Shown here: in pieces, positions 5,063-44,201 of the stretch
Position numbering within the stretch: position 1 is the first letter of the stretch
Layout of the letters: every line of letters starts with the position of its first letter
Assembly: GCA_964463875.1 (NCBI GenBank)
Contig: CAYXEG010000003.1
Coordinates: 1 to 46,783, forward strand
From: an uncultured Dehalococcoidales bacterium
GTDB lineage: Bacteria; Chloroflexota; Dehalococcoidia; Dehalococcoidales; UBA2162
Reading direction: 5' to 3'
Length of the DNA: 46,783 nt
Notes under the pieces: generated by a model
Told to the model about the DNA's origin: nothing
The model's input: only the letters and a program-made list of their open reading frames with translations
Databases searched by the model: none
Position numbers and translations under genes: made by a program

Positions 5063-5065
5063 CGA

Positions 5066-7245: not shown

Positions 7246-7251
7246 CGAACG

Positions 7252-8685: not shown

Positions 8686-8722
8686 AAGAACTGATTCAAA
8701 ACAAATAATGCCGGAGGGATAA

Positions 8723-10167: not shown

Positions 10168-10180
10168 AAGAAAGGAAATA

Positions 10181-10786: not shown

Positions 10787-10814
10787 CGTATGAATAGAGG
10801 ACAATGAAGACGTT

Positions 10815-11993: not shown

Positions 11994-12009
11994 TAGAGAG
12001 GCTCGAGCA

Positions 12010-12069
12010 ATGAACCGGAAAATGAAAAAGCTGATAACAACAGGAGTAGCGCTGCTGTTGCATGAATAA
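12010..12069 (+). CDS. possible 19-aa mini-ORF (MNRKMKKLITTGVALLLHE), signal-peptide-like remnant or leader peptide
   Basis: GAGAGG lies upstream. It looks like a truncated signal peptide and sits in the 94-nt gap before the LuxE-like gene. Confidence 0.15.
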   Translation: MNRKMKKLITTGVALLLHE

Positions 12070-12087
12070 GAAAAAGGTACCGATGGT

Positions 12088-13485: not shown

Positions 13486-13498
13486 CGGGAAGCGCACT

Positions 13499-15025: not shown

Positions 15026-16060
15026 ATGAAAACAAAGCTGACTATTTGCATTCTGGCGATACTGCTGGCCGGTTCGGCGGGTTGTACCAAGGATGTTGAT
15101 ACAGCCGCAACAAACGATGATGAATCATCCGCCGGCGGCTGGGAACTGGTCTATGAAGCCGATAACGGCAGCCAGCTAAGAGATCTCTATTTTTCCGACG
15201 ACAATAACGGCTGGGCATGCGGCAGCGCCGGACTGCTCCTCCACACCCCGGACGGAGGGGATACCTGGTACCAGGTCGAAACCGGGACGGAGAACGACCT
15301 GACCTGCCTGCATTTCTTCAATGATAAAAAGGGGGTAATTGCCAGTCTTCAGGCAAGCATCGGCGCCACGTCTGACGGCGGGAAAAACTGGCAATGGCAG
15401 AAACCGGAACTACTCGGCAAAGGCGGTTACCTGGACGTCTTTTTTACCGACCGGCGGAACGGTTGGCTGGTCAGCAACGTCGGGACAATACTCCGGACGA
15501 GAGACGGCGGGGCAACCTGGGAAAAACAGGAAAGCGGGACGACCCGGCACCTGGCGGCCGTCTTTTTCATCGATGCGAAAACCGGCTGGATAATCAGCGA
15601 GCGTTCCGTCCTCAGCACCACCGACGGCGGGAAAAACTGGAATAAAACACAACCGGACGTCTCCCTGGCAAGCGGTACCTTCTTTACCGATATCTACTTT
15701 ATCGATAAGCAGGAAGGCTGGATTACCACCACCGCCATGGCAAGTTCCCTGTGGGAAGCGACGGCAACCCTGCTTCATACCACCGACGGCGGCAGAACCT
15801 GGGCGGCTGCGCCCTCCCCGCCGGAAAAATGGCTGAAAGCCGTCATCATGACCGACAACACGACCGGCTGGCTGGCCGGCAGCGAGCACCTCTCCTACAC
15901 GAATGACGGAGGCGCAACCTGGACGGCGCGGCTGGACAGCGGCGGCGACCCGTTCGTCGATATCGTCATCACCGAAAACAACCGGCTCTACGCCCTCACC
16001 TTCACGGGTAAAATCTACCGGCACCCTGATGCCCTGCGGGTGGGAAAAACCGGAGTATAG
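15026..16060 (+). CDS. lipoprotein with six BNR/Asp-box (DGG-x-TW) repeats, Ycf48-like/sialidase-like beta-propeller
   Basis: Lipobox LAGSAGC. Repeats: PDGGDTW, SDGGKNW, RDGGATW, TDGGKNW, TDGGRTW, NDGGATW. Its ATG directly abuts the LuxC TAA stop (15023-15028 TAAATG). Confidence 0.8.
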   Translation: MKTKLTICILAILLAGSAGCTKDVDTAATNDDESSAGGWELVYEADNGSQLRDLYFSDDNNGWACGSAGLLLHTPDGGDTWYQVETGTENDLTCLHFFNDKKGVIASLQASIGATSDGGKNWQWQKPELLGKGGYLDVFFTDRRNGWLVSNVGTILRTRDGGATWEKQESGTTRHLAAVFFIDAKTGWIISERSVLSTTDGGKNWNKTQPDVSLASGTFFTDIYFIDKQEGWITTTAMASSLWEATATLLHTTDGGRTWAAAPSPPEKWLKAVIMTDNTTGWLAGSEHLSYTNDGGATWTARLDSGGDPFVDIVITENNRLYALTFTGKIYRHPDALRVGKTGV

Positions 16061-16101
16061 GAGAAAAGCCAATCGTTTACGCGACGAGGCTGGAGAAGTA
16101 A

Positions 16102-16632
16102 ATGAAAAAAATATCGATAATTCAGATAGCCGCCGGAGCATTGCTGATTGCTTCCTACTTTATATTCATCAGACTGGTGCAGCCGGGATATTACAGGATG
16201 GAAATTCTGGATATCAACGGAGTAATCATCGGCGGTTCTATAGGCAGCCCGTCATGGGCGGTTACGCCGGCGCTGGTTATCTGGACGGCCGGTTACCCGC
16301 TGCTTGGAATACTGGTGACCGGCTGCGGGGTATCGCGGCTCATTAAAAACTACCGGGGACAGGCAACAAGGAAGCTGGATATCGCCCAGGTTGTTTTCGG
16401 TGCTCTCCTCCTGGCCTTGATGATTATGTTCGTGACAAGCTATGAGCCTCACTGGCCGAATTACGCATCAACAAAGGTAATACAAGGTTTCCCCGGAGCC
16501 GTCGAAGTCCGCCATAACCCCGGATGGGTTGCCGGGATGAACGCGTGGAAAATAGGCATGTTCTGCCTCGGCCCGGTCATTACCGCCAGCGGGGGATGGA
16601 CTCTATTGAAATCGAGAAAGATTGAACGATGA
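16102..16632 (+). CDS. integral membrane protein, hypothetical (about 5 TM)
   Basis: Multiple hydrophobic helices (IIQIAAGALLIASYFIFI, ALVIWTAGYPLLGILVTGCG, VVFGALLLALMIMFV, IGMFCLGPVITASGGW). Its stop overlaps the next ATG (ATGA at 16629). Confidence 0.65.
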   Translation: MKKISIIQIAAGALLIASYFIFIRLVQPGYYRMEILDINGVIIGGSIGSPSWAVTPALVIWTAGYPLLGILVTGCGVSRLIKNYRGQATRKLDIAQVVFGALLLALMIMFVTSYEPHWPNYASTKVIQGFPGAVEVRHNPGWVAGMNAWKIGMFCLGPVITASGGWTLLKSRKIER

Positions 16633-17747
16633 AAGTAACGTTGTATTCGCTGATTCTGATGCTATTAACGGTTGCAGGTATCACCACCGCCTGCACCCCC
16701 CCGGAACAGCCGTACCTGATGCCGGTCACGGACTTTTCTTTCACCGGTTTGTGGGATGAGATTCAGGAAACCACGGGGGCAAGCGGCAACCAGACGCACC
16801 TTCAGTCCTTCGATTTGCGAATCAAGAATGATAAAGTAATGTCCGGTTCTGCCAGATTCAGCTCTATCGATAACGCGGGGCATGATATCTTTTACAGGGT
16901 TGATACGGATACCAGGGGAAAACTGCAATGGAACGGCCGGGGCACGAAAGATATTCTACCGCCCATAGGCCTCAGGTATGACCCGGCAAAAACCTTCGCC
17001 GAACTTGACCGTCTCGGGGTAGAGGCAGTTATCGATAGCGCCCGGAGTGTCGGCGTAAGAATCGAGAATATCTACAATGAACGGCAGTATGACTACGCTG
17101 ATATGTTCCGGCTGGATGACGGTGAATTACTGCCGCTGCGGGAAGCTTCTTTCCCGAAGGACGCCGTGGCAGTACAGATTCAGGTTGACCGGTCCTACGA
17201 GCGGGAAGAAGCGGCTCCTTTCGCCCTCGGCAGATTCAGAGTGACGAGCGAATGGTGGTTCACCGGGAACGACCTCGAAAAGGCCGATTCGGTCGTATTC
17301 GCGAAAAACCGGCAGGGGCCGGAATTCGTCGGTTTCCTCAAAGGCGTTTATGAGGCATTGCCGGAAGGCTGGGAAATGAGCCTCAGTACCCATGAAGGAC
17401 ACATGAATCCGCCGGAGGGACTGGAAGAACCGCTTTTCGTCCTGATTTTCGAAGATACGGTCAATTCGTTCACCCTGCCGGCCGACCCGGCGAACACTCC
17501 GATTGTTCCCGGCCTGCGGCTCTTTTTCTACGACATCGCTGAAAAAGAAGCCCGCATGGAAAAAATCGAACAGCAGCAGCAATACTCGTGGGATATTCCG
17601 GTTTACTACGACGAAAGTCCTTTGTACCTTGCCGTCACCTCGCCGGTGTATATCAATTCCGGCCATTACGGAGAGGAAGAAATAACGTATTACCGGGTGC
17701 TGGAGAAAGCGCTGAAGGAATTTTTCGATGGAGAAAGAACCGAATAA
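16629..17747 (+). CDS. putative lipoprotein (family D)
   Basis: Signal LILMLLTVAGITTAC. FTGLWDEIQETTGASG.. and YADMFRLDDGELLPLREASFP align with the next gene product. Confidence 0.7.
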   Translation: MKVTLYSLILMLLTVAGITTACTPPEQPYLMPVTDFSFTGLWDEIQETTGASGNQTHLQSFDLRIKNDKVMSGSARFSSIDNAGHDIFYRVDTDTRGKLQWNGRGTKDILPPIGLRYDPAKTFAELDRLGVEAVIDSARSVGVRIENIYNERQYDYADMFRLDDGELLPLREASFPKDAVAVQIQVDRSYEREEAAPFALGRFRVTSEWWFTGNDLEKADSVVFAKNRQGPEFVGFLKGVYEALPEGWEMSLSTHEGHMNPPEGLEEPLFVLIFEDTVNSFTLPADPANTPIVPGLRLFFYDIAEKEARMEKIEQQQQYSWDIPVYYDESPLYLAVTSPVYINSGHYGEEEITYYRVLEKALKEFFDGERTE

Positions 17748-17765
17748 CATAGCGAGGAGATACCG

Positions 17766-18479
17766 ATGAAACGAAAACCCGGACGTATACTACTGGCGGG
17801 GCTGTGCCTGCTGTCAATCATTGTTGTCACTTTTATTCCGGGCTGCAACAACATTCAGTGGTCTTCTCAAATAAACAGCTCCATACATGAACTCACTCTT
17901 ACAGAGTTATGGAATACCATCGCAGCTACAACAGCTATCCAGGAACCGAGCGCAGAAATGGGGACGTTTTCGATGAATGTCGAGCCGGATGGTGAACTCT
18001 CATTTTTGGATTTCACCTTCTCGGGAAGAAATAACAACGGAAAACCATGCGTGTATTTCGTCGGTTTCGGGCACAGGAGCAGGATTTCCGTAAAAAGTTA
18101 TGAAATCGATGATATTATCGTCAGCCGGCATCCGGCATCGGTGTTCGAGGAAATCGATATGTACGGACTGGACTCCATTGAAACGGGTGAGGGAGGATTA
18201 AGGATGATTATCTCATTTCAAGCCGGTAGTCTCGTTTACCGAAGAAGCGAGGCTGACCTGTTTCATCTTGAAAAAGGAGAACTTCTGCCTTTGGAGGAAA
18301 TTATGTTCAGCGGTCAAAACCAGCATTGTACCGTAAGCCTGTTGAAACTTGCCCCGAATAAACCGGTATCCACGACAGCCGCGGCTCCGATGCTGCCGGG
18401 TGAAAGAGCTAACGAAATATGGTTTCTCGATGAAGATATCAGCCTGGCCGAGACGGTTGTTTACTGGAATGAGAACTGA
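17766..18479 (+). CDS. putative lipoprotein (family D)
   Basis: GAGGAG RBS. Signal ILLAGLCLLSIIVVTFIPGC. LTELWNTIAATTAIQ and EADLFHLEKGELLPLEEIMFS are homologous to the 16629 product. Confidence 0.7.
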   Translation: MKRKPGRILLAGLCLLSIIVVTFIPGCNNIQWSSQINSSIHELTLTELWNTIAATTAIQEPSAEMGTFSMNVEPDGELSFLDFTFSGRNNNGKPCVYFVGFGHRSRISVKSYEIDDIIVSRHPASVFEEIDMYGLDSIETGEGGLRMIISFQAGSLVYRRSEADLFHLEKGELLPLEEIMFSGQNQHCTVSLLKLAPNKPVSTTAAAPMLPGERANEIWFLDEDISLAETVVYWNEN

Positions 18480-18578
18480 ATCACTATGTCCGTGGAGAAG
18501 AAGGTGAGAATAGGATATCCCGGAAGGCGGGCCCCAAAATCCCTCTTCGGAGGTGTTGAGTAAGGTTGATGGTTCTGC

Positions 18579-18613
18579 TTCTCCCTTTAAAAGGGAGAAT
18601 GAGAGGGATTTTT
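18579..18613 (+). terminator. rho-independent terminator candidate / REP-like element copy C
   Basis: Hairpin TTCTCCCT (18579-18586) / AGGGAGAA (18592-18599), followed by TGAGAGGGATTTTT. An outer arm AAATCCCTCT at 18537-18546 can pair with AGAGGGATTT. Confidence 0.5.
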
Positions 18614-18664
18614 GTGTACCTGCGATATTTTATGCGCGTTCCTTCCGGAGGTTGATAATCGATT

Positions 18665-20140
18665 ATGAAAAGAATAGTGTTGAAAATTCTATTGCTGGCA
18701 GCCGCCATGGCGCTGTTGTTCACCGGGGCTTCCTGTAACCGGACCTCCGGCGATGCTTTTAACGAAGATAACCTCATACCGGAAAAGGTACTCGCCGGAC
18801 TTCCGGTCTATCCTGATGCAGCCATGACCACGGAAGATGGGACCGGGTTCAAGCCGTTTTCAACGCCGCTGTCACCTCAGGTCGAAGGCCGGCCGCCGGA
18901 AATCGTCTACGAGACCGTATCCCGGCAGTATACCTCGGAAGCTGAACCGGATTCGATTCTGAAATGGTACCGGAGCAAACTGACCGGCAAAGGTTATCAG
19001 GTCTATTCCGAGACGAGCTATTTCGACTTCGACGACTTTAATATACACAACAAAACAGAAACTTCGACAACACAACAGATACAAAGAGCGGATATTATTC
19101 ACGTAAGCGGTGAAGTCCATAGTTTAGGATTCTATCGTCCCAAGTTAACGCTCATCAGTATCGAAGTGCATGCCTGTTCAACAACCGGGAAAACAATCTT
19201 CGCCGTCATCGTCAACCGGGATACGACCACTCCGGCTGAACCGGAGGTAATGAAGCTGTCAACCGGTATAATTTCGTATTCCGGCTTCAAGCAGGAGGCG
19301 AGTGTCCGTATCGGCGAACCGAGAAAGGATGCTCCGGTCATTCTTACCATAGCTAATAGCGGAGACGTCAGGTACGGCACTCAGCAGTTCGATGTATCCG
19401 GTCGTGAGTTGTCCGAAATTCCGGAAAGCGACCTGGAACCGGCATCGATTCCCACGAACAGGCTCCTGCCGGCAGGTACGGCCGGTATTTACCAGATAGT
19501 ACATCTGAAAGACCGTTACGAAGACAGGCTGCTCTTCGAAGCGAAGAAAAGCAATGACGGGCCGCCGGATTACCTGATTACGGACAACGCCGGAGCAGTT
19601 CTCTATACCCTGCCGATGAACTACCTGATCACCCGGTATAGATACGAAGCCTGCCTGGTCGAAAACGGCCTGGCGGTTTACTACGGCACCAATGTACTGA
19701 ATTCACGACTGAAGAAGTATTCGTATGACGGAAGTATCGTCTGGTCGGCAGAGGTTCCCCTGACAGGCAGTCCCCACCTCAGCCGAATTCAGGATAACGG
19801 CAGCGAACTGCTGGCACTCCGGATACAGAGCAGTGATAATGAACATTATGTCGGCTACTTCACCGCCGAAAACGGCACGATGTTTCTAGAAAACAAGTTT
19901 ACTGACGACAGGCGGGTTCAGGTAACCGATAAAGCAGGTTACTACTATCTCTTTACCGAATGGCCGGAATACTACGAAATGGCGGTTCCGCCGGGAAGAA
20001 TCAGTTTATTCTATGGTAACGAAGAAGCAGCCTATGCGGACGTATCCGAAGGCATCTACTACTTCGCTGCCTCGCCTGACGGCCGCTACTTCGCGGTGGT
20101 GACGAGAAACAGGTTGTCGATATTTTCGTTTACGGAATAA
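18665..20140 (+). CDS. putative lipoprotein, 491 aa (N-terminal GLPVYP module; C-terminal beta-propeller-like region)
   Basis: Signal ILLLAAAMALLFTGASC. VLAGLPVYPDA..SILKWYRSKLTGKGYQV parallels ILSGLPVYPGS..DLIDWYEGYFKESGFHF in the 5066 product. A TolB-like ASPDGRYFAVV motif lies near the C-terminus. Confidence 0.7.
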   Translation: MKRIVLKILLLAAAMALLFTGASCNRTSGDAFNEDNLIPEKVLAGLPVYPDAAMTTEDGTGFKPFSTPLSPQVEGRPPEIVYETVSRQYTSEAEPDSILKWYRSKLTGKGYQVYSETSYFDFDDFNIHNKTETSTTQQIQRADIIHVSGEVHSLGFYRPKLTLISIEVHACSTTGKTIFAVIVNRDTTTPAEPEVMKLSTGIISYSGFKQEASVRIGEPRKDAPVILTIANSGDVRYGTQQFDVSGRELSEIPESDLEPASIPTNRLLPAGTAGIYQIVHLKDRYEDRLLFEAKKSNDGPPDYLITDNAGAVLYTLPMNYLITRYRYEACLVENGLAVYYGTNVLNSRLKKYSYDGSIVWSAEVPLTGSPHLSRIQDNGSELLALRIQSSDNEHYVGYFTAENGTMFLENKFTDDRRVQVTDKAGYYYLFTEWPEYYEMAVPPGRISLFYGNEEAAYADVSEGIYYFAASPDGRYFAVVTRNRLSIFSFTE

Positions 20141-20149
20141 CCAGAAAAC

Positions 20150-20179
20150 TTGACGAATACTACCGGAATGGACTATTGT
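20150..20179 (+). promoter_or_regulatory. weak promoter candidate (TTGACG-18 nt-TATTGT)
   Basis: Hexamers at 20150-20155 and 20174-20179 in the 108-nt gap before the glycine-zipper genes. Confidence 0.25.
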
Positions 20180-20248
20180 TTCAGTAAGGTATTGGTTATC
20201 AGTGAAGTACCGGACAATACAATGATGACCGTACCGGAGGTGAATGGT

Positions 20249-20614
20249 ATGAACAAAAACAGGTTACGCAGTTTCCTCTATCTTCTGGTTTTCATGCATT
20301 TTTTCGACCCGTTCGCCTACAAGACAACCGTTGAAGGTGAGGCCCGGATAAAAGACCGTGACCCGCGCGACCCGAACCAGGCGCCAAAGCCGGGAAAAGG
20401 CGACAGCTACCTGCTGGGGGCGACGTTTCTCGGCATCATCCTCGGCGGCGTCGCCGGATTCCTCATCGCCTATCACGGTTTCGGCAACCACATGGTAGTC
20501 CTCGGCATTTTTGGCGGGATACTGGCCGGAGGCCTGGCCGGCATCTCTATCGGAAGCCGGCTGAAAAAGAAGAAACAGCAGGAAGCCGACGACGGACCGA
20601 GTGCAGGAGTATAG
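20249..20614 (+). CDS. glycine-zipper membrane protein (family F), 121 aa
   Basis: GGAGGTG RBS lies 6 nt upstream of the ATG at 20249, which I prefer over the TTG at 20150. G-x-x-x-G-rich helices LGATFLGIILGGVAGFLIA and LGIFGGILAGGLAGISIG are followed by KKKKQQ. Confidence 0.6.
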   Translation: MNKNRLRSFLYLLVFMHFFDPFAYKTTVEGEARIKDRDPRDPNQAPKPGKGDSYLLGATFLGIILGGVAGFLIAYHGFGNHMVVLGIFGGILAGGLAGISIGSRLKKKKQQEADDGPSAGV

Positions 20615-20620
20615 AAAACA

Positions 20621-21007
20621 GTGGTACAATACAGTCAGACCATGACCGGCGTACCCGGAATCGCCCTCCACCTCTATCAGAATCCTTTCCAGTTCCGGGA
20701 GACGGTAGAGCGGGAAACCCTGGCTTCAGGCGGGCGTGGTAACGGCAAAAGGCCGCACCGGGACCCACGGGACTATTGGGTATATATCGGGGCGGTCGCC
20801 GGTATCATTGTCGGCTGTACCGCCGGAGCGATAATCGGAGCGTCAACCGCCGGTCTCGGCGGTATATTCCTGGGAATTGTCGCCGGGATGTTCGTCGGCG
20901 GGCTGGGTGGCTCATGGGTCGGCGAGCAGATTAAAAAGAAAAAATACGCCCGTAAAAAAGTAAACAGGAAAGAGACGGCGCCCGGCAAGGGGCCGTTCAT
21001 CGGATAA
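20621..21007 (+). CDS. glycine-zipper membrane protein (family F paralogue)
   Basis: IGAVAGIIVGCTAGAIIGASTAGLGGIFLGIVAGMFVGGLGGSWVG is followed by QIKKKKY. It shares a DPRD motif with the preceding gene. The start is uncertain (GTG 20621 or ATG 20642). Confidence 0.55.
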   Translation: MVQYSQTMTGVPGIALHLYQNPFQFRETVERETLASGGRGNGKRPHRDPRDYWVYIGAVAGIIVGCTAGAIIGASTAGLGGIFLGIVAGMFVGGLGGSWVGEQIKKKKYARKKVNRKETAPGKGPFIG

Positions 21008-22106: not shown

Positions 22107-23093
22107 TTATTGGTCCAGCCGTATCCCGTCTTTTCCCCACAGCCGTTCGCCGTTGGGGTTGATTCTCTGAATATATGAGGCTGTTTCGTCTTTCATGGTT
22201 TTTCCGGCCGCCCAGGTGACGTAAAAGCCGCCGTTGCCATCGGGGATAATCCGGGCCGGTTCCTGGCCGGATACCCAATAAGGACGGATAGATGATACAA
22301 GAACCCCCTCTTCATTCCATACTTCGCGACCGGCTTCATCGAAGCATTGCGCCCGGAGTTCATATTTTCGATTTATGAATTTCTTCCGAACGGAGGCATT
22401 CACTATTACAGGATTGCAGTAAACAGGCGGGTCTTCATCTCCGGGGCTGGAGCGGAATTCGCCATCCTTACCGAAAATCACAAGGTTACCGGAAGAACCG
22501 CATTCCATACCGAAATCCTTGTGATAATCCAGCCCGGGAGCCTCGATGTCCGTTCTCCGGAGAAGAACCCCTTCGCTGTCAACCTGCAGGAGACCGATAG
22601 TGTTGTTACCCGAAATAAAGGCGGCGAAGGCTCCGTCGCGGTCATCTTTCATGACCTTCAGGGAAGGGGTTTTCCCGAAAAATGTTGCCAGCGTCACCGG
22701 GGAAAAGACGGGTATCCCGTCTGCATCCAGTTTATGAAACACGATGCTGTCTATAGTTGATGAGATAACGGATACGCTGCCGTCATCATTCAAAAGCGGC
22801 ATGGCAAAAACAAGGTCGCTAAAACCGTCATAATAACCCCAGTCGGAAGAAAGCTCGGTTCCGGTCTCACCCCAGAGTTTCTCCCCGTTTTCTCCCAGTT
22901 TCTGAATATAAGAGGTTCTCTTATAGTTAAAGTCACTGCCGTAGTTAATCTGGTATGTAATGAAAACCTCGCCCGAATCACCGGCGACGGCAATCGGATG
23001 ATAAATGGAATACCTCGGCGGCCCGGGGTAAGGACTGCAACCGGCAGCAAACAGCAGCGTTAACAGCAGCATTGCCGAAGCAAATATCTTCAT
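22107..23093 (-). CDS. putative lipoprotein, family C paralogue of 8773-10167
   Basis: Preferred start MKIFASAMLLLTLLFAAGC (lipobox AAGC) at 23093. The C-terminus NPNGERLWGKDGIRLDQ parallels QGEPLWGKDGVRLGLK. Also contains ENGEKLWGETG and EAGREVWNEEG. Confidence 0.75.
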   Translation of the reverse strand: MKIFASAMLLLTLLFAAGCSPYPGPPRYSIYHPIAVAGDSGEVFITYQINYGSDFNYKRTSYIQKLGENGEKLWGETGTELSSDWGYYDGFSDLVFAMPLLNDDGSVSVISSTIDSIVFHKLDADGIPVFSPVTLATFFGKTPSLKVMKDDRDGAFAAFISGNNTIGLLQVDSEGVLLRRTDIEAPGLDYHKDFGMECGSSGNLVIFGKDGEFRSSPGDEDPPVYCNPVIVNASVRKKFINRKYELRAQCFDEAGREVWNEEGVLVSSIRPYWVSGQEPARIIPDGNGGFYVTWAAGKTMKDETASYIQRINPNGERLWGKDGIRLDQ

Positions 23094-23164
23094 ATATCGT
23101 CGTCCTTCGAATAACACCCATTCCCTATATGAATCAAGCCCTATAGTATCACAAATAATACGGC

Positions 23165-23222
23165 AACACACATACGCAACATATAGAACAAATAAGCGTA
23201 TGAAAAGACAGTGAGGTATGCT
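23165..23222. repeat. imperfect direct repeat R2 (pairs with 22040-22100)
   Basis: See R1. R2 sits at the transition to low-GC DNA. Confidence 0.5.
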
Positions 23223-23276
23223 ATAAAGAACATTTATGATTAAGCCCTATTTTTTAGAAAACAGCTTATTTGAATT

Positions 23277-23720
23277 TTAGTATAGATTCTTTTTTTGTTG
23301 CTTAAGCCAGATAAGCTGGAGAATACTGGTAACAAAAGTAAAGACACTGAGTATGAATGGGAGAAACATTATATAGTAAAACAACGAATATTCTCCGTAC
23401 CCAAGAGATGCAGCGCGAATAGTGAAACCCAAACCGATAACTGCTATTATTGACCCTGAGGTTATTTGTCGGTTCGAGAAAATGATACCGGCTCTTCGCT
23501 GAAATACAGCACAAATGACGATAACAACCCCGAAAACAAGTAGTATAGTCTCTACTATTGAACTAGGAGGAGGAAGCCCCGTAGTTACAGATACTCCCGA
23601 GCTGGAGTGTGACATCACTCCGATTTTTGTAGTAAGAAGTAGCTGCGAAGCAAAACCGGTAAATGTTGCAGCAACTATGTGTAGTATGGAAGATGCGTTT
23701 TTCATTTTTAATTCCGTCAT
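23277..23720 (-). CDS. integral membrane protein, hypothetical (4 TM)
   Basis: 147-aa ORF with four hydrophobic helices, AT-rich codon usage, and no recognisable family. Confidence 0.55.
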   Translation of the reverse strand: MTELKMKNASSILHIVAATFTGFASQLLLTTKIGVMSHSSSGVSVTTGLPPPSSIVETILLVFGVVIVICAVFQRRAGIIFSNRQITSGSIIAVIGLGFTIRAASLGYGEYSLFYYIMFLPFILSVFTFVTSILQLIWLKQQKKNLY

Positions 23721-23792
23721 TCAAGTAATCGGGGATATCGCATCGTACCTTGAAATGGTCAGGAACTTATCGACGATTAGTTCGGATAATGC

Positions 23793-24401
23793 TTATATAT
23801 GTAATCCTTTAGGCGCGGGTAACTCCCAGTATTCGTCTTTGGATTGGATTATCCTGATGATACGGATGATAACCCCTCTTAAATTCATGGCATCATCATT
23901 CTTGTTTAGAATATTGTCTCTCCATTCCAGTACCTTTATCCGGTGGTTACATTCTACCCTGAAATAATATCCCTGATATTCAGACGTCCCACTGACAAGC
24001 TCACCTTCGGGTACGGGAATAACGAATTTGTCAGGATAACAGAAGAAATTTGTCTCTATCATCTTTTGATAGATTCCGTCCATGTCTTCGTCAGATAAAA
24101 TGAAGTCTATGGTAACCGATGGGTCTTTTCCCAGATACTTTGTATAGGTTCCATTGAACGTATTCAGTACATCCCCGTTGATACCACCATATCCATATTG
24201 GAAAATAAGATTGAAATCGGAAGGCCGGGATTCCGGAAGAGTTTCAGACAAGTCACATCCAGTTTCGACAACAGACTCCGGAGATTCTGAGTCCGAAGGA
24301 GCATTACATCCGATTCCGATAATCATAACCGCCAACAGACATGTTATTGTACTGATATGTATAATCTTCTGCATTCTCTTTTTTACCACTTTATTATTCA
24401 T
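23793..24401 (-). CDS. putative lipoprotein, hypothetical
   Basis: Signal ISTITCLLAVMIIGIGC (lipobox IGIGC). Low-GC composition. Confidence 0.6.
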   Translation of the reverse strand: MNNKVVKKRMQKIIHISTITCLLAVMIIGIGCNAPSDSESPESVVETGCDLSETLPESRPSDFNLIFQYGYGGINGDVLNTFNGTYTKYLGKDPSVTIDFILSDEDMDGIYQKMIETNFFCYPDKFVIPVPEGELVSGTSEYQGYYFRVECNHRIKVLEWRDNILNKNDDAMNLRGVIIRIIRIIQSKDEYWELPAPKGLHI

Positions 24402-24659
24402 ATTGTCAATAACCGAGGTTCTGTTTGGTTTTGGTTGGTAATTACAAGAATGCCTAGAAACAAATCAAAGAGCTATAAATTCCTCTTCATCTCTTCCCTA
24501 TTCACTCCGTTTTCCGATTCACTTCGCTCATGCGGAATCTACGACATGCGGGATGTACCATCCGACCCTCTCCTGATAAAGTAAGCCGATGCAACTGCAG
24601 GAAATTCAGACTTTTTCCATTCGAATATGGAAATACATTCGGAGAAATCATTTCCGCTA

Positions 24660-25115
24660 CTACTCTAAAGGTGCTTTTATTGAATAGTGGTCTATATCAA
24701 CTACTTTCATTGAATCGGGATTTATGTCTACATCCAACCTTACATCCACCGGGTCCCCTGCTTCTATTCTTACACTGATGTATATTTCTGCTCCTTCTGC
24801 CAGTGCTTCTTCGAACCGCTCAAGTTCCTCAGGGTCTTCTTCGAATTCAAGATTAAAGTGACCTCTCTTTGTGTAACCTTTTCCAACGTCATGGGGTTGT
24901 AAAAGAGCCCAGTACAGCGTTATTCGGCAGGATTCTCTTTCTTCCAGGAGAATTTTCATGTTATCGGTATTGAGTGCTGTCTGAATTAATTCCGATCTTT
25001 CTTCACCGGTTAGAGGCCGGATTTCTTTGATACCTTCAGTATTTTCGGAACATCCGGTAAATATGAATATAAAAATCAAAGTATTGACAAAAAGTAACAA
25101 TCCTTTTTTCTTCAT
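24660..25115 (-). CDS. putative lipoprotein, hypothetical
   Basis: Signal MKKKGLLLFVNTLIFIFIFTGC (lipobox FTGC). Low-GC composition. Confidence 0.6.
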   Translation of the reverse strand: MKKKGLLLFVNTLIFIFIFTGCSENTEGIKEIRPLTGEERSELIQTALNTDNMKILLEERESCRITLYWALLQPHDVGKGYTKRGHFNLEFEEDPEELERFEEALAEGAEIYISVRIEAGDPVDVRLDVDINPDSMKVVDIDHYSIKAPLE

Positions 25116-25224
25116 TCTCTAACTCCTCGCCAATCACTATATCCCAAATAATTATGTACATTAAATAATTCAATGTAATTATTTATGTAAAAATAGTGGT
25201 AATTTACGAGCCCATCCGAAAGAT

Positions 25225-25256
25225 GAATCCTGTGATGATACATCATCACAGGATTC
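25225..25256. repeat. perfect 15-bp inverted repeat GAATCCTGTGATGAT-ac-ATCATCACAGGATTC
   Basis: Arms at 25225-25239 and 25242-25256, read directly from the sequence. It lies between the 25300 gene stop and the 25115 gene start. No adjoining T-run on either strand. Confidence 0.7.
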
Positions 25257-25299
25257 CCTTAAGAACTAATTCGGTAAATTACAACTCATAAGTGTTTTA

Positions 25300-26445
25300 T
25301 CATTGAGTATAAAGATAAAAGTTTGTGTATTCAGTGTTAACGTAACAACGATATGGAGGATCGACATTGTCAATTACGTCAGTATCATAACTATCATCCC
25401 AATTATCCCATTGACTATCCACATTTAGCTTATTAACCGTTGTGTAACATGTTGGTAAATTGGGATGGCTGCCATTAGTGGTTACTATCTCACCAATGTT
25501 TTGAGCTCCTGTAGCAGTAGAAAAACCTATATCTTCTATGCCAACTCTTATCCAGGAACTGCCATTATACCATTCCGCTTCCCATGTAGTGCTTGAATAT
25601 TGATGGACTCTTACTTCAAGTGTTGATGTAGAGATATTAAAAATTATCCGATAGTCGCCGCTGGTACTATTGTATTCATATAAATACCGGTAATCAGATA
25701 ACTGTGAGTCTTCTATCCATCCTACTTCCATCCAATGGTTAGAGTTGTCATAAGCATAGACTCGATTACATACAAACTCATAACTGTATTCGAGATCGTG
25801 TTGGACACCGCAATTAACGACATCCATTTTACCCCAGACACCTTTATTGTCCTGGCAAGTTTGAACTCCCGTATAGTGATAGCCATCATTTTTAGATGAC
25901 GGATTTGACTTTGAGGGTAAAGAAAGTGCAATAAAGGATTCTATTTGAACAGGTGTTTCATCAAGCATTCGCTTGTATTCAGATGTATTTACAACCGCCG
26001 TAAGTTCTCTGTATGAAATAAATTCTCTTTTTTCAGTAGGAATTAATTCGAACATAATTGAACGGTTGTTTACGTTTACCATATTCCCTTTTTTCACTTT
26101 AAACAAGTAACCTTTGGGATCTCGGTAGTATTTGTCAGAAGTAGCAAGAACCAATTGATAGTTACCATCTTTAACTGAAAAGGAAAAATTGGTTATAATA
26201 GTGCTACCATTTCCAACGATAATCTTTTGTGCAATTACAGATTCATTTGATTCATCCATTTCTGGCGACAATAGAAGAGTAGCTATGTCTTGTTGCTCAA
26301 GACCATTGATCGTTACTGTAACGTTTATCTTTTGTTCCGATGTAATAAATGTCTTTAAACTCATCGCTGCTACCGGAGTAGTATTAATACCAAGCACTAA
26401 GGTCAGCATCAATAAAATAACAATAGTAAAAATCCGTTTCCTCAT
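25300..26445 (-). CDS. secreted hypothetical protein, 381 aa (N-terminal Ig-like/beta-sandwich region, Trp/Tyr-rich C-terminal domain)
   Basis: AAGGAG lies 7 nt upstream of the ATG at 26445, which I prefer over 26466. Signal peptide MRKRIFTIVILLMLTLVLGINTTPVAA. I did not recognise a family. Confidence 0.65.
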   Translation of the reverse strand: MRKRIFTIVILLMLTLVLGINTTPVAAMSLKTFITSEQKINVTVTINGLEQQDIATLLLSPEMDESNESVIAQKIIVGNGSTIITNFSFSVKDGNYQLVLATSDKYYRDPKGYLFKVKKGNMVNVNNRSIMFELIPTEKREFISYRELTAVVNTSEYKRMLDETPVQIESFIALSLPSKSNPSSKNDGYHYTGVQTCQDNKGVWGKMDVVNCGVQHDLEYSYEFVCNRVYAYDNSNHWMEVGWIEDSQLSDYRYLYEYNSTSGDYRIIFNISTSTLEVRVHQYSSTTWEAEWYNGSSWIRVGIEDIGFSTATGAQNIGEIVTTNGSHPNLPTCYTTVNKLNVDSQWDNWDDSYDTDVIDNVDPPYRCYVNTEYTNFYLYTQ

Positions 26446-27197
26446 TTTCAATCTCCTTAAGAACAATACTTCTATTCACTTGTGCTGTTCCATAGGCTTC
26501 TACCTCGCTTCGGTACCTTCTCAGGTCATATCGGTATCGAAATAGTAGCACAAATTCTCCGAAAAGAGTTGTAGATTTTCTTAAGTTTTTCATAGGATTT
26601 TCTAAAGACGGGATGTTTTTCTTGTACACTGATGATGCATGGCTATACCAACAGGCAGGTTTTTACTCCCGGAACCGGTACCCAGTCTTCGGCAGGGTTC
26701 TTAACAGGAAAACCGTCGGTACAATTACATATACGTACGTTACCATGATACATCACCGTTAGTCTTACATATACTTTTTTTTATTTTGATACGTATTTGT
26801 TATAGAGATCTGATTCCGTCACGCTTCGCCTTCTCCCGGGAATAGTATGCCTGGAAGCAATCAAAGAATACCCGCTCCACCAGGGAGGCTGATAAGAGAG
26901 AAAAACGGGTGCAGTATCAATAATTTATTATTTATATCACTCATTTTGTGTATGTCATACTTGTTTCATCATTTTTTCCTGCGTTCTACCGGTTAATACC
27001 TTGTTATTCCTTATATTTTTGTGCTTTTTCCTGGTATTTCAAAAGATACACCCTGATAATTTGTGCTTTTTTTTACAGTCGCATCTACGATTGTCCAGAA
27101 TAAACCACATAAACCAATATCAGTACTTTTCATTTTTCTGTGCTTTTTAACAAAGTCACTTTTCGCGGCTGATACTGCTGCTTTTTCGGGCAAAATA

Positions 27198-37455: not shown

Positions 37456-38248
37456 CCGCTTTCAGGGTAAAGGTCAGGGGGATTTTATCGCCCGGTATCC
37501 GCCAGCCACCCTCCCCGTCCGGCACCATGTACGGCAAGGCCTTGAAGAAGAGGACAGGGAATTCATGGAGAAACGCTATCTTCAGTCCGGCGGCAATCAG
37601 TGCATTTATTATGTCACCTAAGGGGTGCGTCCACTCATGGCTGTGGTGAATTCGGGCTGTCTTCACACCGGCGTAGGAGCCTTCGGTCGGATAGATTTCA
37701 GGCTCCGGGACATGGAAATAGGAATTGCGAATCTCCGGCTTCACAGCCTCCGGATTTTCATCGAACAGCATGGTAAGGAACGGGTGTTCCTCGCGGATAT
37801 AGAAAAAACCTCCGCTTTTGAGGAATTGCGCAATTACGCCAGCCCACTGGTTCAAATCAGGCAGCCAGCAGAGAACCCCCGCCGAGGTGTAGACGATATC
37901 GAATTCCCCTTTCAGTGTATCCGGTAAATCATAGAGGTTCGAGCAAACGAAATCGGCCTTGATTCCCGTCTGCTTACCCAGGTTCCGGGCAATATCGATT
38001 GCCTTGTCCGAAAAATCGGTCCCGGTCACCTTCGCTCCCCTTCTCGCCCATGACAGCGTATCCATGCCGAAATGGCACATCAGGTGGAGCAGCGTTTTCC
38101 CGGTAACGTCCCCGACTTCTTCCACTTCGAGGGCATGAAGGGTACTCTTACCCGGTAAAAAGCCGGCGACATTGTAGAATTCCGACCCGGCGTGCAGTTC
38201 CGCCCACTCGTTCCACATTTCCCGATTATGCTGAAGATAGTCGTCCAT
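37445..38248 (-). CDS. class I SAM-dependent methyltransferase
   Basis: Start placed at MDDYLQHNREMW. SAM motif I LLHLMCHFGMDT and acidic loop VTGTDFS. The longer ORF extension overlaps the NUDIX gene. Confidence 0.75.
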   Translation of the reverse strand: MDDYLQHNREMWNEWAELHAGSEFYNVAGFLPGKSTLHALEVEEVGDVTGKTLLHLMCHFGMDTLSWARRGAKVTGTDFSDKAIDIARNLGKQTGIKADFVCSNLYDLPDTLKGEFDIVYTSAGVLCWLPDLNQWAGVIAQFLKSGGFFYIREEHPFLTMLFDENPEAVKPEIRNSYFHVPEPEIYPTEGSYAGVKTARIHHSHEWTHPLGDIINALIAAGLKIAFLHEFPVLFFKALPYMVPDGEGGWRIPGDKIPLTFTLKAVKP

Positions 38249-41759: not shown

Positions 41760-41827
41760 CAGTTGGATTACTGACACCTGAGTGCGGAAGTGTTTCGTCG
41801 GATAGGTAGTACGAGCCTGACTTTTCC

Positions 41828-42169
41828 TTAATTACGCAATTGCGCAATTAAGCGAGTGAGCAGTTCCTCATCGTTTTTAACGCCCCGGACGTCCAGGGTG
41901 GTGGTGCTGAAAGCTTTCACCATGTTCTCGACCAGCCGGGTTTTGCTTATTTTCTTGCCGCCGCTGAACTTGGCGGTTGACGAGAGGCTTTCGAGGTAGG
42001 CATCTTCCTGGCGGTTCAGAAACACGGAGAGCTTTATGGTGCTGGAGGCAGGTTCGGCTGAAGGCGGAGCAACCGTTTCTGCCGCCGGAGGCGCCGGACG
42101 CGACCCGCCGGTCAGGCGTTCCAGAGCTTTGCCGTAAGCGCTTTCTTCGGTAATTTTAACTCTTTTCAT
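41828..42169 (-). CDS. small ParA partner, candidate ribbon-helix-helix centromere-binding protein (ParG-like)
   Basis: 113 aa with a 14-nt overlap on the parA 3' end. Basic N-terminus (MKRVKITEE..), a Pro/Ala-rich linker, then a strand-helix-helix-like segment STIKLSVFLNRQEDAYLESL..ISKTRLVENMVKAF. Confidence 0.5.
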   Translation of the reverse strand: MKRVKITEESAYGKALERLTGGSRPAPPAAETVAPPSAEPASSTIKLSVFLNRQEDAYLESLSSTAKFSGGKKISKTRLVENMVKAFSTTTLDVRGVKNDEELLTRLIAQLRN

Positions 42170-42944
42170 TTTTCATCACCTCTCTGGTCAACTGCCGATA
42201 GGCTTCGGCTCCGGCTGAATTCGGGTCGTAGCTGAGAATCGAGACGCCGGCGGCGGGGGCTTCCTTGAAACGAACCGTGACGGGAATCATCGTTTCGAAG
42301 ACCCGTATCTTGTCGCCAAAAGCGCGTTTTGTCACGTCGATAACTTCCTTGCTGTGAATGGTACGGGGATTCGTCATGGTAAAGAGAATGCCGGCGATTT
42401 TCAGTTTCGAATTCAGTTTTTCCTGAACCCTCAGTACCGTATCGAGCAGCAGGGCAAGCCCTTTCATGGCCAGAAAGTCTGTCTGAAGAGGTATAAGGAC
42501 GCTGTCGGAAGCGGCCAGGGCGTTAATGGTCAGGAGAGCCAGGCTTGGAAGGCAGTCAATCAGGATGTAATCGTACTTTTTCAGTACCGGTTTTATCATG
42601 TCGCGCAGGACATACTCGCGGGTGAAGGCGTTCACCAGGTCAAGCTGCGCCTGAGAAAGTTCGATGTTGGCCGGAATGATATCGATTTTCGGGTTTTTCG
42701 TACCGAGAATGACGTCGTTAACAGTAATCGATTTATCATCCCTGACAATAGCGTTCAATAACGTGTACCCGGTCAGCTCGATTTCTTCGGGGGTATGGCC
42801 GAAGGAAATGGTGAGGCTGGCCTGCGGGTCCCAGTCGATGACCAGCACCTTTTTGCCGAGTTCGGCCAGGCCTTCGGCGAGGGCAGCGGTCGTGGTGGTT
42901 TTCCCGACACCGCCTTTCTGATTAGCTATGGATATGACCGTCAT
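42156..42944 (-). CDS. parA: ParA/Soj-type partition ATPase (deviant Walker A)
   Basis: VISIANQKGGVGKTTTTAALA (KGGxxK[ST]), VLVIDWDPQAS, and the DYILIDCLPS Walker B region. 262 aa with no N-terminal HTH extension. Confidence 0.85.
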   Translation of the reverse strand: MTVISIANQKGGVGKTTTTAALAEGLAELGKKVLVIDWDPQASLTISFGHTPEEIELTGYTLLNAIVRDDKSITVNDVILGTKNPKIDIIPANIELSQAQLDLVNAFTREYVLRDMIKPVLKKYDYILIDCLPSLALLTINALAASDSVLIPLQTDFLAMKGLALLLDTVLRVQEKLNSKLKIAGILFTMTNPRTIHSKEVIDVTKRAFGDKIRVFETMIPVTVRFKEAPAAGVSILSYDPNSAGAEAYRQLTREVMKNEKS

Positions 42945-42964
42945 AGTAACCCTTCCTGCCGTTA

Positions 42965-42993
42965 ATATTAACGCATTTACGCAATTTCGTCAA
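42965..42993 (-). promoter_or_regulatory. consensus promoter of the parA operon embedded in the repeat array (minus strand TTGACG-17 nt-TAATAT)
   Basis: Minus-strand -35 is the complement of 42988-42993. The -10 is the complement of 42965-42970. The 17-nt spacer (42971-42987) consists of repeat units 1-2. Confidence 0.55.
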
Positions 42994-43178
42994 TACTCTT
43001 TTCCGCATTTCCTCGTTTACTCTTTAACGCATTTACGTTATTACGGTAATACGCTTTTACGTTTTTACGTTATTGCGCTAATGCGTTTTTCCTTATTTGC
43101 GTATATACGTTTTTACGTGATTGCGTGTTTGCGTTTTTGTCCTTTTACGCTTTTACGCATTTCCGCTTTTCTGCATTT
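42971..43178. repeat. array of 26 directly repeated, perfectly phased 8-bp units (consensus ACGY-WTTT): candidate parH/parS-like centromere and operator
   Basis: Units start every 8 nt from 42971 to 43171 with no indel. 20 of 26 have CG at unit positions 2-3 (ACGC x6, ACGT x5, GCGT x4, and others). 21 of 26 end in TT. Identical units recur (ACGCATTT x3). Confidence 0.85.
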
Positions 43179-43231
43179 TTCATCATGTTCTGATATCAGT
43201 TCACTGTCTGAAACGATTGTTTCCGGTAAAG

Positions 43232-43265
43232 AAAAAGCCCTCTCTTTTTACAGTGAGGGCTTTTT
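43232..43265 (-). terminator. bidirectional rho-independent terminator separating the SPFH/NfeD operon from the partition cassette
   Basis: AAAAAGCCCTC (43232-43242) / GAGGGCTTTTT (43255-43265), with T-runs on both strands. Confidence 0.65.
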
Positions 43266-43283
43266 CTTTCATGTTTTTACGGG

Positions 43284-44201
43284 TTATTTTTTAGCTGTTC
43301 CGCTGTTTCCTTCTTTCAGGGCTTCGCTGAGTCCGAGGACATTGATAAGTTTCGACTGGTCGGAAACGACCAGCTTTGTATTATTTTCGAGCGAAGCCTG
43401 GCTTACCTGGAGCTGTTTCAGCAACTGGGCATTGCCAACAAAGTATTTATCAGCGGCTTTCGAGACATTTTCGATTGCCTGGGCTTCGCCCTCGGCACGG
43501 AGTATGGCTGCCTGACGGTCGCCTTCGGCTTCCAGAATCGCTTTCTGACGGTTGCCTTCGGCGCTGAGAATGGCATTCTGTTTATCGCCTTCGGCTTCGA
43601 GTATCTGTTTCTGCCGATAAGCTTCAGCTTCGAGAATGGTGGCTCTCTTTTCGCGTTCGGCCTTCATCTGCTTGCTCATGGCGTCCGAGATATCTTTCGG
43701 CGGTTCGATTTCCTTGACCTCGACGCGGGTTACCTTCACGCCCCATTTATCGGTCGCTTCATCGAGGGTTTCGGTCAGAGTGGCATTCATCCTCTCTCTC
43801 GAAGCCAGCGATTCATCGAGCGCCATTTCGCCGACGACATTCCTGATGTTCGTCTGGGCAAGCTTGCTGACGGCGGTAAAGAAATCAGCCACCTCATAAC
43901 GGACCGCTTTGGCATCAGTGACATAATAATAAATGACAGCGTCGATGGTGATAGTTACGTTATCGTTGGTAATTACTGCCTGGGGAGGTATATCGATAAC
44001 CGCTTCCCGCATATCCACCCGCGCAACCAGTTTATCGATAAACGGTATCAGGAATTTGAGGCCAGGTTCGAGCGTCTCTTTGTACTTTCCCAGCCGCTCA
44101 ACAATGCCTCTCTGTGCCTGACGAATGATGGTAATCGACCTTGCCAGCAGCACGGCTGCAAGAACGAGTACGATGATGAGTATGACAATACCGGGTGACA
44201 T
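43284..44201 (-). CDS. SPFH/Band 7 (stomatin/paraslipin-like) protein
   Basis: N-terminal TM, then VIIRQAQRGIVERLGKY..L.PGL.F.IPFID. C-terminal 11-aa tandem repeats AEG(D/N)(K/R)Q-x-AIL. Confidence 0.9.
   Translation of the reverse strand: MSPGIVILIIVLVLAAVLLARSITIIRQAQRGIVERLGKYKETLEPGLKFLIPFIDKLVARVDMREAVIDIPPQAVITNDNVTITIDAVIYYYVTDAKAVRYEVADFFTAVSKLAQTNIRNVVGEMALDESLASRERMNATLTETLDEATDKWGVKVTRVEVKEIEPPKDISDAMSKQMKAEREKRATILEAEAYRQKQILEAEGDKQNAILSAEGNRQKAILEAEGDRQAAILRAEGEAQAIENVSKAADKYFVGNAQLLKQLQVSQASLENNTKLVVSDQSKLINVLGLSEALKEGNSGTAKK

Follow-up and report, generated by a model that had tools for sequence, protein, structure and literature searches.

Known partition systems and the Dehalococcoidales locus

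In the ParF-ParG partition system of TP228, the operator OF contains eight degenerate ACTC boxes and the parH site twelve (20 in total), separated by 4-bp AT-rich spacers. According to its published description, one ParG dimer binds each box, OF alone works as a centromere, centromere activity drops when boxes are removed and the N-terminal tail of ParG is required to recruit ParF. A review of partition systems lists helix-turn-helix (HTH) ParB proteins as the centromere-binding proteins of bacterial chromosomes, and places ribbon-helix-helix (RHH) binders in plasmid systems of types Ib and II and, among archaea, in SegB. The body of SegB, one strand and three helices in an RHH fold with an extra helix, follows a flexible tail; its residues 1-21 stimulate the ATPase and many dimers coat the DNA. 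Here we analyzed a 46,783-nt stretch of DNA from an uncultured Dehalococcoidales bacterium (GenBank assembly GCA_964463875.1, contig CAYXEG010000003.1), hereafter called the window. At 41.8-43.3 kb it carries a cassette with all its features on the minus strand: parA, the gene of a 113-amino-acid (aa) partner protein and, over their promoter, an array of 26 phased tetramer boxes. We judge that this is probably an autoregulated, two-gene, type-Ib-like partition module native to the Dehalococcoidales chromosome. A self-contained operon of parA and a small-protein gene, with phased boxes over its own promoter, had been proposed in an earlier note on this DNA and was borne out here; the TP228 box architecture cited in that note also agrees with the published account of parH and OF. 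The elements discussed below are the following.

43228-43269, hairpin terminator with an A-run and a U-run on its flanks (folding energy -24.4 kcal/mol, z -6.6)
42971-43178, minus strand, array of 26 phased 8-bp units (208 bp), predicted binding array for the 113-aa protein
42993..42965, minus strand, sigma-70-type promoter TTGACG-17-TAATAT, found by consensus scan
42950..42957, minus strand, Shine-Dalgarno-like sequence AGGAAGGG, 5 nt before the parA ATG, read from the sequence
42944..42156, minus strand, parA, 262 aa, Soj-type deviant Walker A ATPase
42169..41828, minus strand, gene of the 113-aa partner, overlapping parA by 14 nt
41834-41853, second box site ACGC-AATT-GCGC-AATT-AAGC, within the last codons of the small gene (…IAQLRN*)
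37820-37839, distal three-box site GAGG-AATT-GCGC-AATT-ACGC, within a gene for a methyltransferase, some 4 kb downstream of the operon

The locus shares several features with TP228. Both are two-gene operons with the ATPase first and the small protein second, and ParG joins a tail that contacts the ATPase to a C-terminal dimeric DNA-binding domain, a layout predicted to be alike here. Both use degenerate tetramer boxes, ACTC/GAGT boxes included, with 4-bp AT-rich spacers and an 8-bp period, and in both the promoter operator continues into a longer distal array (8 + 12 boxes in TP228, about 5 + 21 here). At the sequence level, an iterated array upstream of the operon that overlaps the -35 hexamer and spacer is also found in type Ib loci, and ParA has the size and domain content of type Ib ATPases (some 200-260 aa, with neither an HTH nor a regulatory domain at the N-terminus). 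However, the ATPase is of Soj type and scores 45 bits to ParF, the main box is RCGY instead of ACTC, and the C-terminal domain has an extra helix in the AlphaFold2 (AF2) model. Moreover, the locus is chromosomal and vertically inherited, and the 3' end of its operon contains another site, whereas type Ib loci are plasmid-borne; the chromosomes concerned here measure 2.2-2.3 Mb. Similarity to ParG went undetected: the 113-aa protein has no Pfam hit, and hhalign gave a probability of 0.1-0.4% with a ParG query that matched 1P94 over its full length, so that the likeness to the TP228 paradigm drawn in the earlier note does not extend to homology with ParG.

The box array and its promoter

Read in 8-nt steps, the array at 42971-43178 yields 26 units with zero indels. 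In gene orientation each unit is a tetramer box (RCGY or GAGT) with an A-rich spacer of 4 bp after it. Among the boxes, GCGT occurs six times, ACGT five, ACGC four, GAGT two and GCGG two, besides degenerate forms; the spacers are AAAA (nine), AAAT (six) and others. Since these tallies read alike in gene orientation, all 26 units share one orientation, and stepwise reading thus confirmed the unbroken phase and single orientation claimed before; a literal ACTC occurs twice, in units 4 and 7. The lag-8 autocorrelation of the array was 0.685, as against 0.314 +/- 0.029 in shuffles (z = 12.6; shuffle maximum 0.45) and 0.375 in the best 208-bp stretch elsewhere in the window, which sets the array far beyond chance. 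Tandem Repeats Finder (TRF) independently reported periods of 8, 16, 24 and 32 for it.

The promoter TTGACG-17-TAATAT described in the earlier note was recovered by a consensus scan at the same place, and boxes make up its -35 hexamer and its entire 17-nt spacer. Because the boxes fill these two elements, autorepression of the operon is suggested. We aligned the upstream regions of 75 orthologous loci on the -35 element and obtained the promoter consensus GAGTATTGACGCAnTTGCGCAATTgCGcTATAAT, in which most spacer positions are invariant. The conserved block of about 45 bp (GCGC-AAAA-GAGT-ATTG-ACGC-AnTT-GCGC-AATT-GCGC-TATAAT) comprises five boxes in 8-bp register over the -35 hexamer and the spacer; no conservation was seen further upstream in the 75 aligned regions, and in most loci about 48 nt separate the -35 element from the parA ATG. 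The 17-nt spacer is near-invariant across species, which would not be expected of a plain promoter, and reads as boxes in the 8-bp register. This five-box promoter operator is the sole cis element conserved family-wide. Units 1-5 of the array, the promoter-proximal ones, correspond to this order-wide operator, and the remaining units are a lineage-specific expansion; most orthologous loci have just 3-5 boxes, inside the promoter. The earlier note would have counted it against its reading if orthologous loci that retain the genes lacked the array, and this is partly the case: the 3-5 promoter boxes are kept, and the 26 units are gone from nearly all loci.

Among about 160 loci, just three have a long array: the window, L004 with 24 units and L005 with at least 11, up to the contig end. 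The proteins of L004 are 96-97% identical to those of the window, and ParA identity among the array-bearing genomes is 84-97%. Indels between the three arrays measure 16, 24, 32 and 40 bp. Between the window and L004, substitutions affect 6 of 96 box positions and 15 of 96 spacer positions (p = 0.06). Half of the six box changes fall within one already degenerate unit, and the other three (ACGT/ACGC, ACGC/ACGT and GCGT/GAGT) stay within the allowed box set. It is conceivable, though we find it doubtful, that the 26-unit array has no added function and is a microsatellite-like expansion, driven by slippage and tolerated in an intergenic region. The confinement of long arrays to three loci, the whole-unit length differences and the 16-, 24- and 32-bp higher-order repeats of TRF, which suggest recent block duplication, would all agree with this. 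Yet the box sequences are intact in three genomes at 84-97% ParA identity, boxes vary less than spacers and, outside the one degenerate unit, change only within the allowed set. Slippage would also leave aside that another clade reaches a similar box number through sites of about five boxes dispersed over 6 kb, and that centromere activity in TP228 scales with box number.

On the side away from parA, the hairpin at 43228-43269 forms the boundary between the SPFH/NfeD operon upstream and the par promoter. None of 200 shuffles folded into an equally stable structure, and the hairpin also occurs in L004 with compensatory stem changes, so the bidirectional terminator-like element of the earlier note is real; judging from the A-run and U-run on its flanks, it would terminate transcription in both directions. 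A plus-strand open reading frame (ORF) at 42928-43515, which spans the array, was rejected as a gene and regarded as a by-product of the T-rich repeats; at its position the relatives examined have an unrelated gene or non-repetitive sequence. Within the operon, the coordinates of the two genes verified their 14-nt overlap. The sequence GAGAGGTGA, 6 nt before the ATG of the 113-aa gene, sits inside the end of parA, which suggests that translation of the second gene is coupled to that of the first.

The 113-aa partner protein

The 113-aa protein founds a new family, with more than 1400 members, no Pfam model and a likely DNA motif. Its homologues, 60-80% identical and lacking a name or a Pfam domain, come from metagenome-assembled genomes of Dehalococcoidales, Dehalococcoidia or Chloroflexota. 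In an alignment of 30 homologues, residues 1-22 are near-invariant (MKRxKITEExAYGxALxRLTGG), with 13 of the first 21 residues strictly conserved (M1, K2, R3, T7, E8, A11, Y12, G13, A15, L16, R18, T20 and G21). Residues ~23-43 form a Pro/Ala-rich linker, variable in length and sequence, and the C-terminal region is again highly conserved (IKLSVFLNR.EDAYLE.L.STAKFSGGKK.SKT…). AF2 reached a predicted local distance difference test (pLDDT) score of 63 with the 30 close homologues and 89 with 60 diverse sequences; in the latter model, which we used, helices span residues 8-19 (N-terminal), 53-68, 76-89 and 100-112, and residues 44-51 are extended. The layout put forward in the earlier note, a conserved basic N-terminus, a Pro/Ala linker and a strand-helix-helix core, was therefore seen in both the alignment and the model.

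As for the RHH fold also suggested there, the order of the elements fits, whereas the fold searches gave no significant match. With hhalign, residues 45-67 aligned to the strand and helix A of CopG (pairwise E 0.0015, at a probability of only 17%), and the strand was placed on those of ParG and omega. Scattered family members have sub-threshold matches to RHH_1, RHH_3 and RHH_5 at the right place. Foldseek searches of PDB and BFVD returned nothing with E < 0.3, and the presence of the RHH proteins Reg576, ParD2, VapB and a Gordonia phage RHH protein among the insignificant matches is a hint. PHROGs gave no match. We discarded as noise the neprilysin and designed proteins that appeared when both family profiles were searched against PDB sequences with hmmsearch, and disregarded DUF2274 matches in 5 of the 30 members (E 0.004 or weaker). 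Based on the model, it is plausible that residues 44-112, a strand and three helices, are RHH-like; the protein would then bind DNA as an RHH dimer.

A profile search of 1.84 billion representative sequences found 126 relatives, mostly of 75-110 aa, that match only residues ~40-112. Four of these distant relatives (P0138, P0207, P0234 and P0183) carry an N-terminal extension of the form KRA.[ILV]…[AL]LD.[LMF][FT], and all four are encoded directly after a Soj-like ParA of 255-260 aa, 44-54% identical to that of the window; neither of the two relatives lacking the extension (P0133 and P0136) adjoins a ParA. Because the presence of the peptide tracks ParA adjacency (4/4 versus 0/2), it resembles a portable ParA-activating peptide and, small as these numbers are, we infer from the sequences that it serves as a ParA-contact module. 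The peptide of P0234 (MAKRAKVTEENAASLLGGNALDRFTGG) almost equals that of the window protein and is fused to a Pfam RHH_3 domain (22.7 bits, cut-off 21.6). P0138 carries the ParB-like motif LEKGRGISILFGE, and P0138 and P0145 have a ParB-like GRG/GKG version of the N-terminal motif; in its published description, the N-terminal motif of ParB has an Arg or Lys at its centre, surrounded by aliphatic and basic residues. In L090, the operon is flanked on both sides by 8-bp iterons, CATATAAT and TATATGGT (L090:820-1160 and 2300-2350). As these differ in sequence from the boxes of the window, the 8-bp period seems to be a property of the protein family and not of one box.

Further arrangements were observed among these relatives. 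At L088:199-2280, in a distant relative, the genes of a ParA and of a small protein of 144 aa precede a gene for a canonical ParB (ParB_N + HTH_ParB), which is convergent and overlaps slightly. The N-terminus of the small protein has the ParB-like LEKGRGISILFGE, and that of the ParB lacks the usual LG(R/K)GL ParA-binding motif, so the ParA-activating peptide may have been transferred from ParB to the small protein in L088. L096:1-640 encodes two tandem stand-alone paralogues of the C-terminal domain, of about 80 aa each and without the ParA-type N-terminal peptide, and the stand-alone domain P0133 (in L084) sits among response-regulator genes. Judging from these two cases, the C-terminal domain may serve more generally, outside ParA systems, as a small module for DNA binding or regulation.

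ParA and its relation to other systems

ParA's deviant Walker A motif, KGGVGKT, occupies residues 10-16 and keeps the signature lysine. The protein has neither an N-terminal extension nor a DNA-binding domain at the N-terminus and matches Pfam AAA_31 with 199 bits over residues 1-183. It scored 189 bits against Myxococcus xanthus ParA (8RAY), 164 bits against mycobacterial ParA-like proteins and 151-160 bits against the Soj proteins of Helicobacter pylori and Thermus thermophilus, compared with 71 bits for McdA, 58 for delta, 55 for SegA and 45 for ParF (4DZZ), the last over the first 45 residues only. These scores side with chromosomal ParA/Soj (151-189 bits versus 45), and the plasmid-type ParA after the ParF paradigm that the earlier note had envisaged did not stand. 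ParA is 47% identical over its full length to what we take to be the Bacillus subtilis Soj sequence, including an Arg aligned with R189, the DNA-binding Arg of Soj; the Spo0J query was likewise assumed, and was confirmed indirectly by its detection of ParB controls. Judged by its sequence, ParA is of the chromosomal Soj type and not of the plasmid ParF type. A homology search with ParA returned orthologues only and was uninformative about paralogues and cultured relatives. At residues 36-41, ParA reads VIDWDPQ where B. subtilis Soj has VDIDPQ, which places a Trp beside the conserved Asp.

With ParABS (Soj-Spo0J-parS) the locus shares a Soj-clade ParA, a chromosomal location and an N-terminal motif of basic and aliphatic residues on the partner. 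It also shares the placement of a binding site, predicted in our case, inside the coding sequence of the partner gene, as one parS lies within spo0J in B. subtilis. In contrast, the 113-aa partner has no ParB/Srx CTPase domain and no HTH, and the sites are iterated 8-bp units, with no parS palindrome in 846 kb of flanking DNA. Since the sites are iterated, loading would proceed by cooperative coating and not by CTP-gated sliding clamps. By analogy, archaeal SegA-SegB-S1 of Sulfolobus is conceptually the nearest system: it too combines a chromosomal ParA-type ATPase with a protein of about 110 aa, and SegB has the order of elements seen in the AF2 model of the 113-aa protein. However, SegA scores only 55 bits, neither sequence nor Foldseek links the partner to SegB, and the locus differs in its bacterial host and in phased tetramer boxes that double as operator. 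The delta-omega-parS system of pSM19035 likewise pairs a ParA-type ATPase with an RHH repressor doubling as centromere-binding protein; omega coats short iterated units, 7-bp heptads, over promoters and regulates several of them. Unlike our locus it is plasmid-borne, delta scores 58 bits and omega is similar only at the strand. McdAB differs too, as McdA-type ATPases typically lack the signature lysine; here KGGVGKT is present, McdA scores 71 bits and the partner is predicted to bind DNA.

Box sites outside the array and the promoter

The earlier note had called for a search for further box arrays; we made it in the window and in the loci of relatives, and it revealed a site at the 3' end of the small gene and several scattered sites, additions that the note had missed. 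A three-box weight-matrix scan of the window matched only 37820-37839, 41826-41853 and the array (about 0.03 matches expected), with no site in the other 37 kb of the window. The 3'-end site scored 25.4 with the position weight matrix, higher than all null scores, and was flagged independently by TRF (row 41830-41850). Of 77 loci, 43 have GCGCAATTGCGC, with one mismatch at most, at this place in the small gene. The codons for its final residues, R-[VL]-x-A-Q-L-R, spell AGAGTAATTGCGCAATTGCGC and are often extended beyond the stop as TAATGAGTAATTACGC; across the stop codon, the two give 3-5 boxes in phase. Codon usage at this site departs from the background of the same genes: GCG (Ala) 82% versus 18%, CAA (Gln) 73% versus 15%, TTG (Leu) 66% versus 7%, GTA (Val) 83% versus 16% and AGA (Arg) 59% versus 15%. 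The binomial p values, below 1e-16 per codon, overstate independence because the sequences are related. As rare synonymous codons are kept there, the sequences provide good evidence for selection on the DNA sequence itself at the 3'-end site.

The distal site at 37820-37839 scored 21.9, with 0.03 sites expected over the whole window, and was found at the equivalent place in L003, L005 and L027. In 817 kb around the operon in all loci, 118 strict phased runs of at least three boxes were counted, against none in a Markov null; of the sites within +/-7 kb, 25 belong neither to the promoter nor to the 3' end. The clade formed by L022, L032 and L033, the last a closed chromosome (CP070842.1), has 5-6 separate sites of about five boxes each, spread over 6 kb. 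Its extra sites are all intergenic, beside tatD, a DUF4412 lipoprotein gene, pyrD, fur and mdh. In L033 they were located at 3040-3201, 3925-4149, 7714-7938 and 8911-8990, and one of them is a perfect 28-bp palindrome, ACTCATCTGCGCAATTGCGCAGATGAGT. Such sites could represent a dispersed centromere or a local regulon.

In a rival explanation, the 113-aa protein is a mere repressor of the operon and a few neighbours and ParA positions a non-DNA cargo, as in McdAB, or has another role; the boxes would be operators only, with no centromere involved. We regard this as improbable. It would be consistent with the promoter operator being the only universally conserved element, with the intergenic position of the four extra sites of the L033 clade upstream of genes, and with stand-alone C-terminal-domain members lying among regulatory genes without ParA. 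Nevertheless, the signature lysine is present in ParA, whose score is 71 bits to McdA versus 150-189 to ParA/Soj; conserved sites also lie within coding regions, namely the small-gene 3' end with its rare codons and the methyltransferase gene; and 26 boxes are far more than repression of one promoter requires. A DNA-bound partner with a ParA-activating tail is, moreover, a DNA cargo adaptor by definition.

Distribution and genomic context

A scan of one genome per species found the 113-aa gene in at least 130 species, all of the Dehalococcoidales group, and a second scan, of metagenome contigs, added 296 copies. Wherever a locus includes the DNA directly upstream of the small gene, a ParA of 62-97% identity is encoded there. 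The operon resides on three closed chromosomes of 2.17, 2.30 and 2.33 Mb, at 94%, 64% and 11% of their coordinates (as recorded, not oriC-based). Closed chromosomes in this set have the accessions CP070832.1, CP070800.1 and CP070842.1. Neighbours recur between the three loci examined (PEBP lipoprotein, YifB/ComM, NUDIX, methyltransferase and SPFH/NfeD), and the neighbours scanned in the window, YifB/ComM-like, SPFH/NfeD and PEBP genes, support the chromosomal context reported before, as does the comparison of synteny in relatives, in which gene order and neighbours recur. In tblastn searches, the small protein had no match in 72,556 plasmids or 50,697 phages, and IMG/VR likewise gave none. Being order-wide on megabase-sized chromosomes and absent from the plasmid and phage collections, the operon is a vertically inherited chromosomal feature; on these grounds and on synteny, the fossil of an integrated replicon considered in the earlier note was rejected. 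An ordinary partition locus of a plasmid or prophage, carried by an integrated or mis-binned mobile element, is an extremely improbable reading. An operator upstream and a small centromere-binding protein downstream are typical of type Ib plasmid loci, and a low-GC stretch occurs 15 kb away in the window, yet at least 130 species-level genomes share a constant ParA-small gene order, with common neighbours in the three loci examined and the three closed chromosomes as locations. To the lack of plasmid, phage or IMG/VR matches is added that no replication, conjugation or integrase genes were found among the window neighbours scanned.

A Spo0J tblastn search of the DNA on either side of the operon, about 1.27 Mb from about 160 loci, detected no ParB gene, and the 16-bp parS palindrome, with up to two mismatches, was absent from the 846 kb of flanking DNA; the rest of the genomes was not searched in either case. 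The positive controls of the ParB search (L088 and L091-L094) were detected. The ParB homology search returned generic ParBs, and one "Chloroflexota" match proved to lie in a Firmicutes-like rnpA…gidB-noc-soj-spo0J region and was set aside. In the literature on ParB-parS in these bacteria, we found only ParBc-domain proteins in Dehalococcoides genomic islands, and no description of a system made of ParA and the 113-aa protein.

In the L079 locus, from a Dehalococcoidaceae metagenome-assembled genome, a complete dnaA (L079:6043-7380; DnaA_N, Bac_DnaA and Bac_DnaA_C) lies downstream of the small gene at a distance of 3.5 kb; the non-coding DNA upstream of dnaA, about 390 bp, is a candidate oriC. 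This closeness and the Soj type of ParA would suit a module that controls replication initiation or nucleoid organization in a Soj-DnaA-like manner, the small protein switching ParA-ATP to ParA-ADP near the sites. Such a role is highly improbable, however, given that dnaA lies near the operon in only one of about 160 loci and that the locus has no conserved DnaA-related feature.

Proposed mechanism

In the partition mechanism that we propose, the 113-aa protein would dimerize through its C-terminal strand and three-helix (RHH-like) domain, and one dimer would occupy each tetramer box (RCGY or GAGT/ACTC), every 8 bp, with A/T spacers between. Occupancy of the three boxes that fill the -35 hexamer and the 17-nt spacer would switch the operon off. 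The protein would also coat the 26 upstream units, the three 3'-end boxes and the three boxes about 4 kb away, and the coated boxes would together form a centromere-like nucleoprotein complex. The Pro/Ala linker would offer the invariant N-terminal peptide to nucleoid-bound ParA-ATP dimers; the peptide would stimulate ATP hydrolysis, and the box-bearing region would travel along the ParA gradient, as in ParABS and type Ib systems. DNA binding by the 113-aa protein, its RHH dimer, repression, ATPase stimulation and the chromosome as cargo are the presumed parts of this scheme. That the 113-aa protein binds the boxes and partners ParA is likely. For the whole module acting in chromosome partition the balance is close to even, tilted slightly in favour, and its replacing ParB-parS is doubtful.

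Several observations weigh against partition by a box-based centromere. The long array is limited to close relatives of the window, slippage alone would also give indels in multiples of 8 bp, and the contrast between box and spacer substitutions is only suggestive. Of the 33 loci whose flanks reach 5 kb or more upstream and 6.5 kb or more downstream, about half have no boxes beyond the 3-5 of the promoter operator, so a large centromere at the operon is not general in the family. The intergenic sites of the L022/L032/L033 clade fit a local transcription factor as well. Pfam, NCBIfam, PDB sequence and Foldseek searches all lacked a significant match for the 113-aa protein, and dnaA lies within 6 kb of the operon at L079 only.

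What is described here is a Soj-type ParA stably paired, order-wide, with a protein of an undescribed family in abundant, mostly uncultured environmental bacteria. In the partner, a ParB-like peptide for ParA contact is combined with an RHH-like domain and with tetramer-box sites. Should the system be functional, its ParA-activating peptide would amount to a portable module, movable among unrelated DNA-binding domains, and two genes with 8-bp boxes would make a compact, sequence-defined system; some bacteria would then possibly segregate their chromosomes without ParB-CTP clamps. A bolder and rather doubtful proposal is that the Soj-type ParA swapped ParB for the small RHH-like protein and that the pair, acting on clusters of 8-bp boxes, is the segregation machine of the chromosome. 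If true, bacteria would have an equivalent of archaeal SegAB, in what would be the first known case of a bacterial chromosome partitioned by a coating-type centromere-binding protein, without a ParB-CTPase, and the concatenation of 26 boxes versus dispersed 5-box sites would show a route of centromere evolution.

Other features of the window

The rest of the window contains chromosomal genes, such as those of an MrfA-like helicase, Lgt, RecJ and IMP cyclohydrolase, and Rfam and tRNA scans of the window were empty. The MrfA/YprA-like helicase (635-2909) is apparently split into two overlapping ORFs in different frames, 635-1987 with DEAD and Helicase_C domains and 1860-2909 with WHD_HRQ1 and the MrfA Zn-binding domain; the split may stem from a frameshift, from pseudogene formation or from misassembly. 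A long co-oriented gene run follows at 3359-21007. It opens with six successive large ORFs without Pfam match (3359-11993, 202-620 aa) and continues with genes for a LuxE-like acyl-protein synthetase, a LuxC-like acyl-CoA reductase, a BNR/Ycf48-like protein and more matchless ORFs, possibly an uncharacterized lipid or cell-envelope gene cluster. The low-GC stretch at 23000-27000 (36-40% versus about 55% elsewhere) may be a horizontally acquired island; ORFs 23793-24401 and 25300-26466 and the adjacent 22107-23171 have no Pfam match. Finally, a 33-bp tandem repeat (43512-43637; 3.8 copies, 69% matches) was located in the SPFH/Band-7 gene, where the 11-residue repeat that it encodes is presumably a coiled-coil segment.

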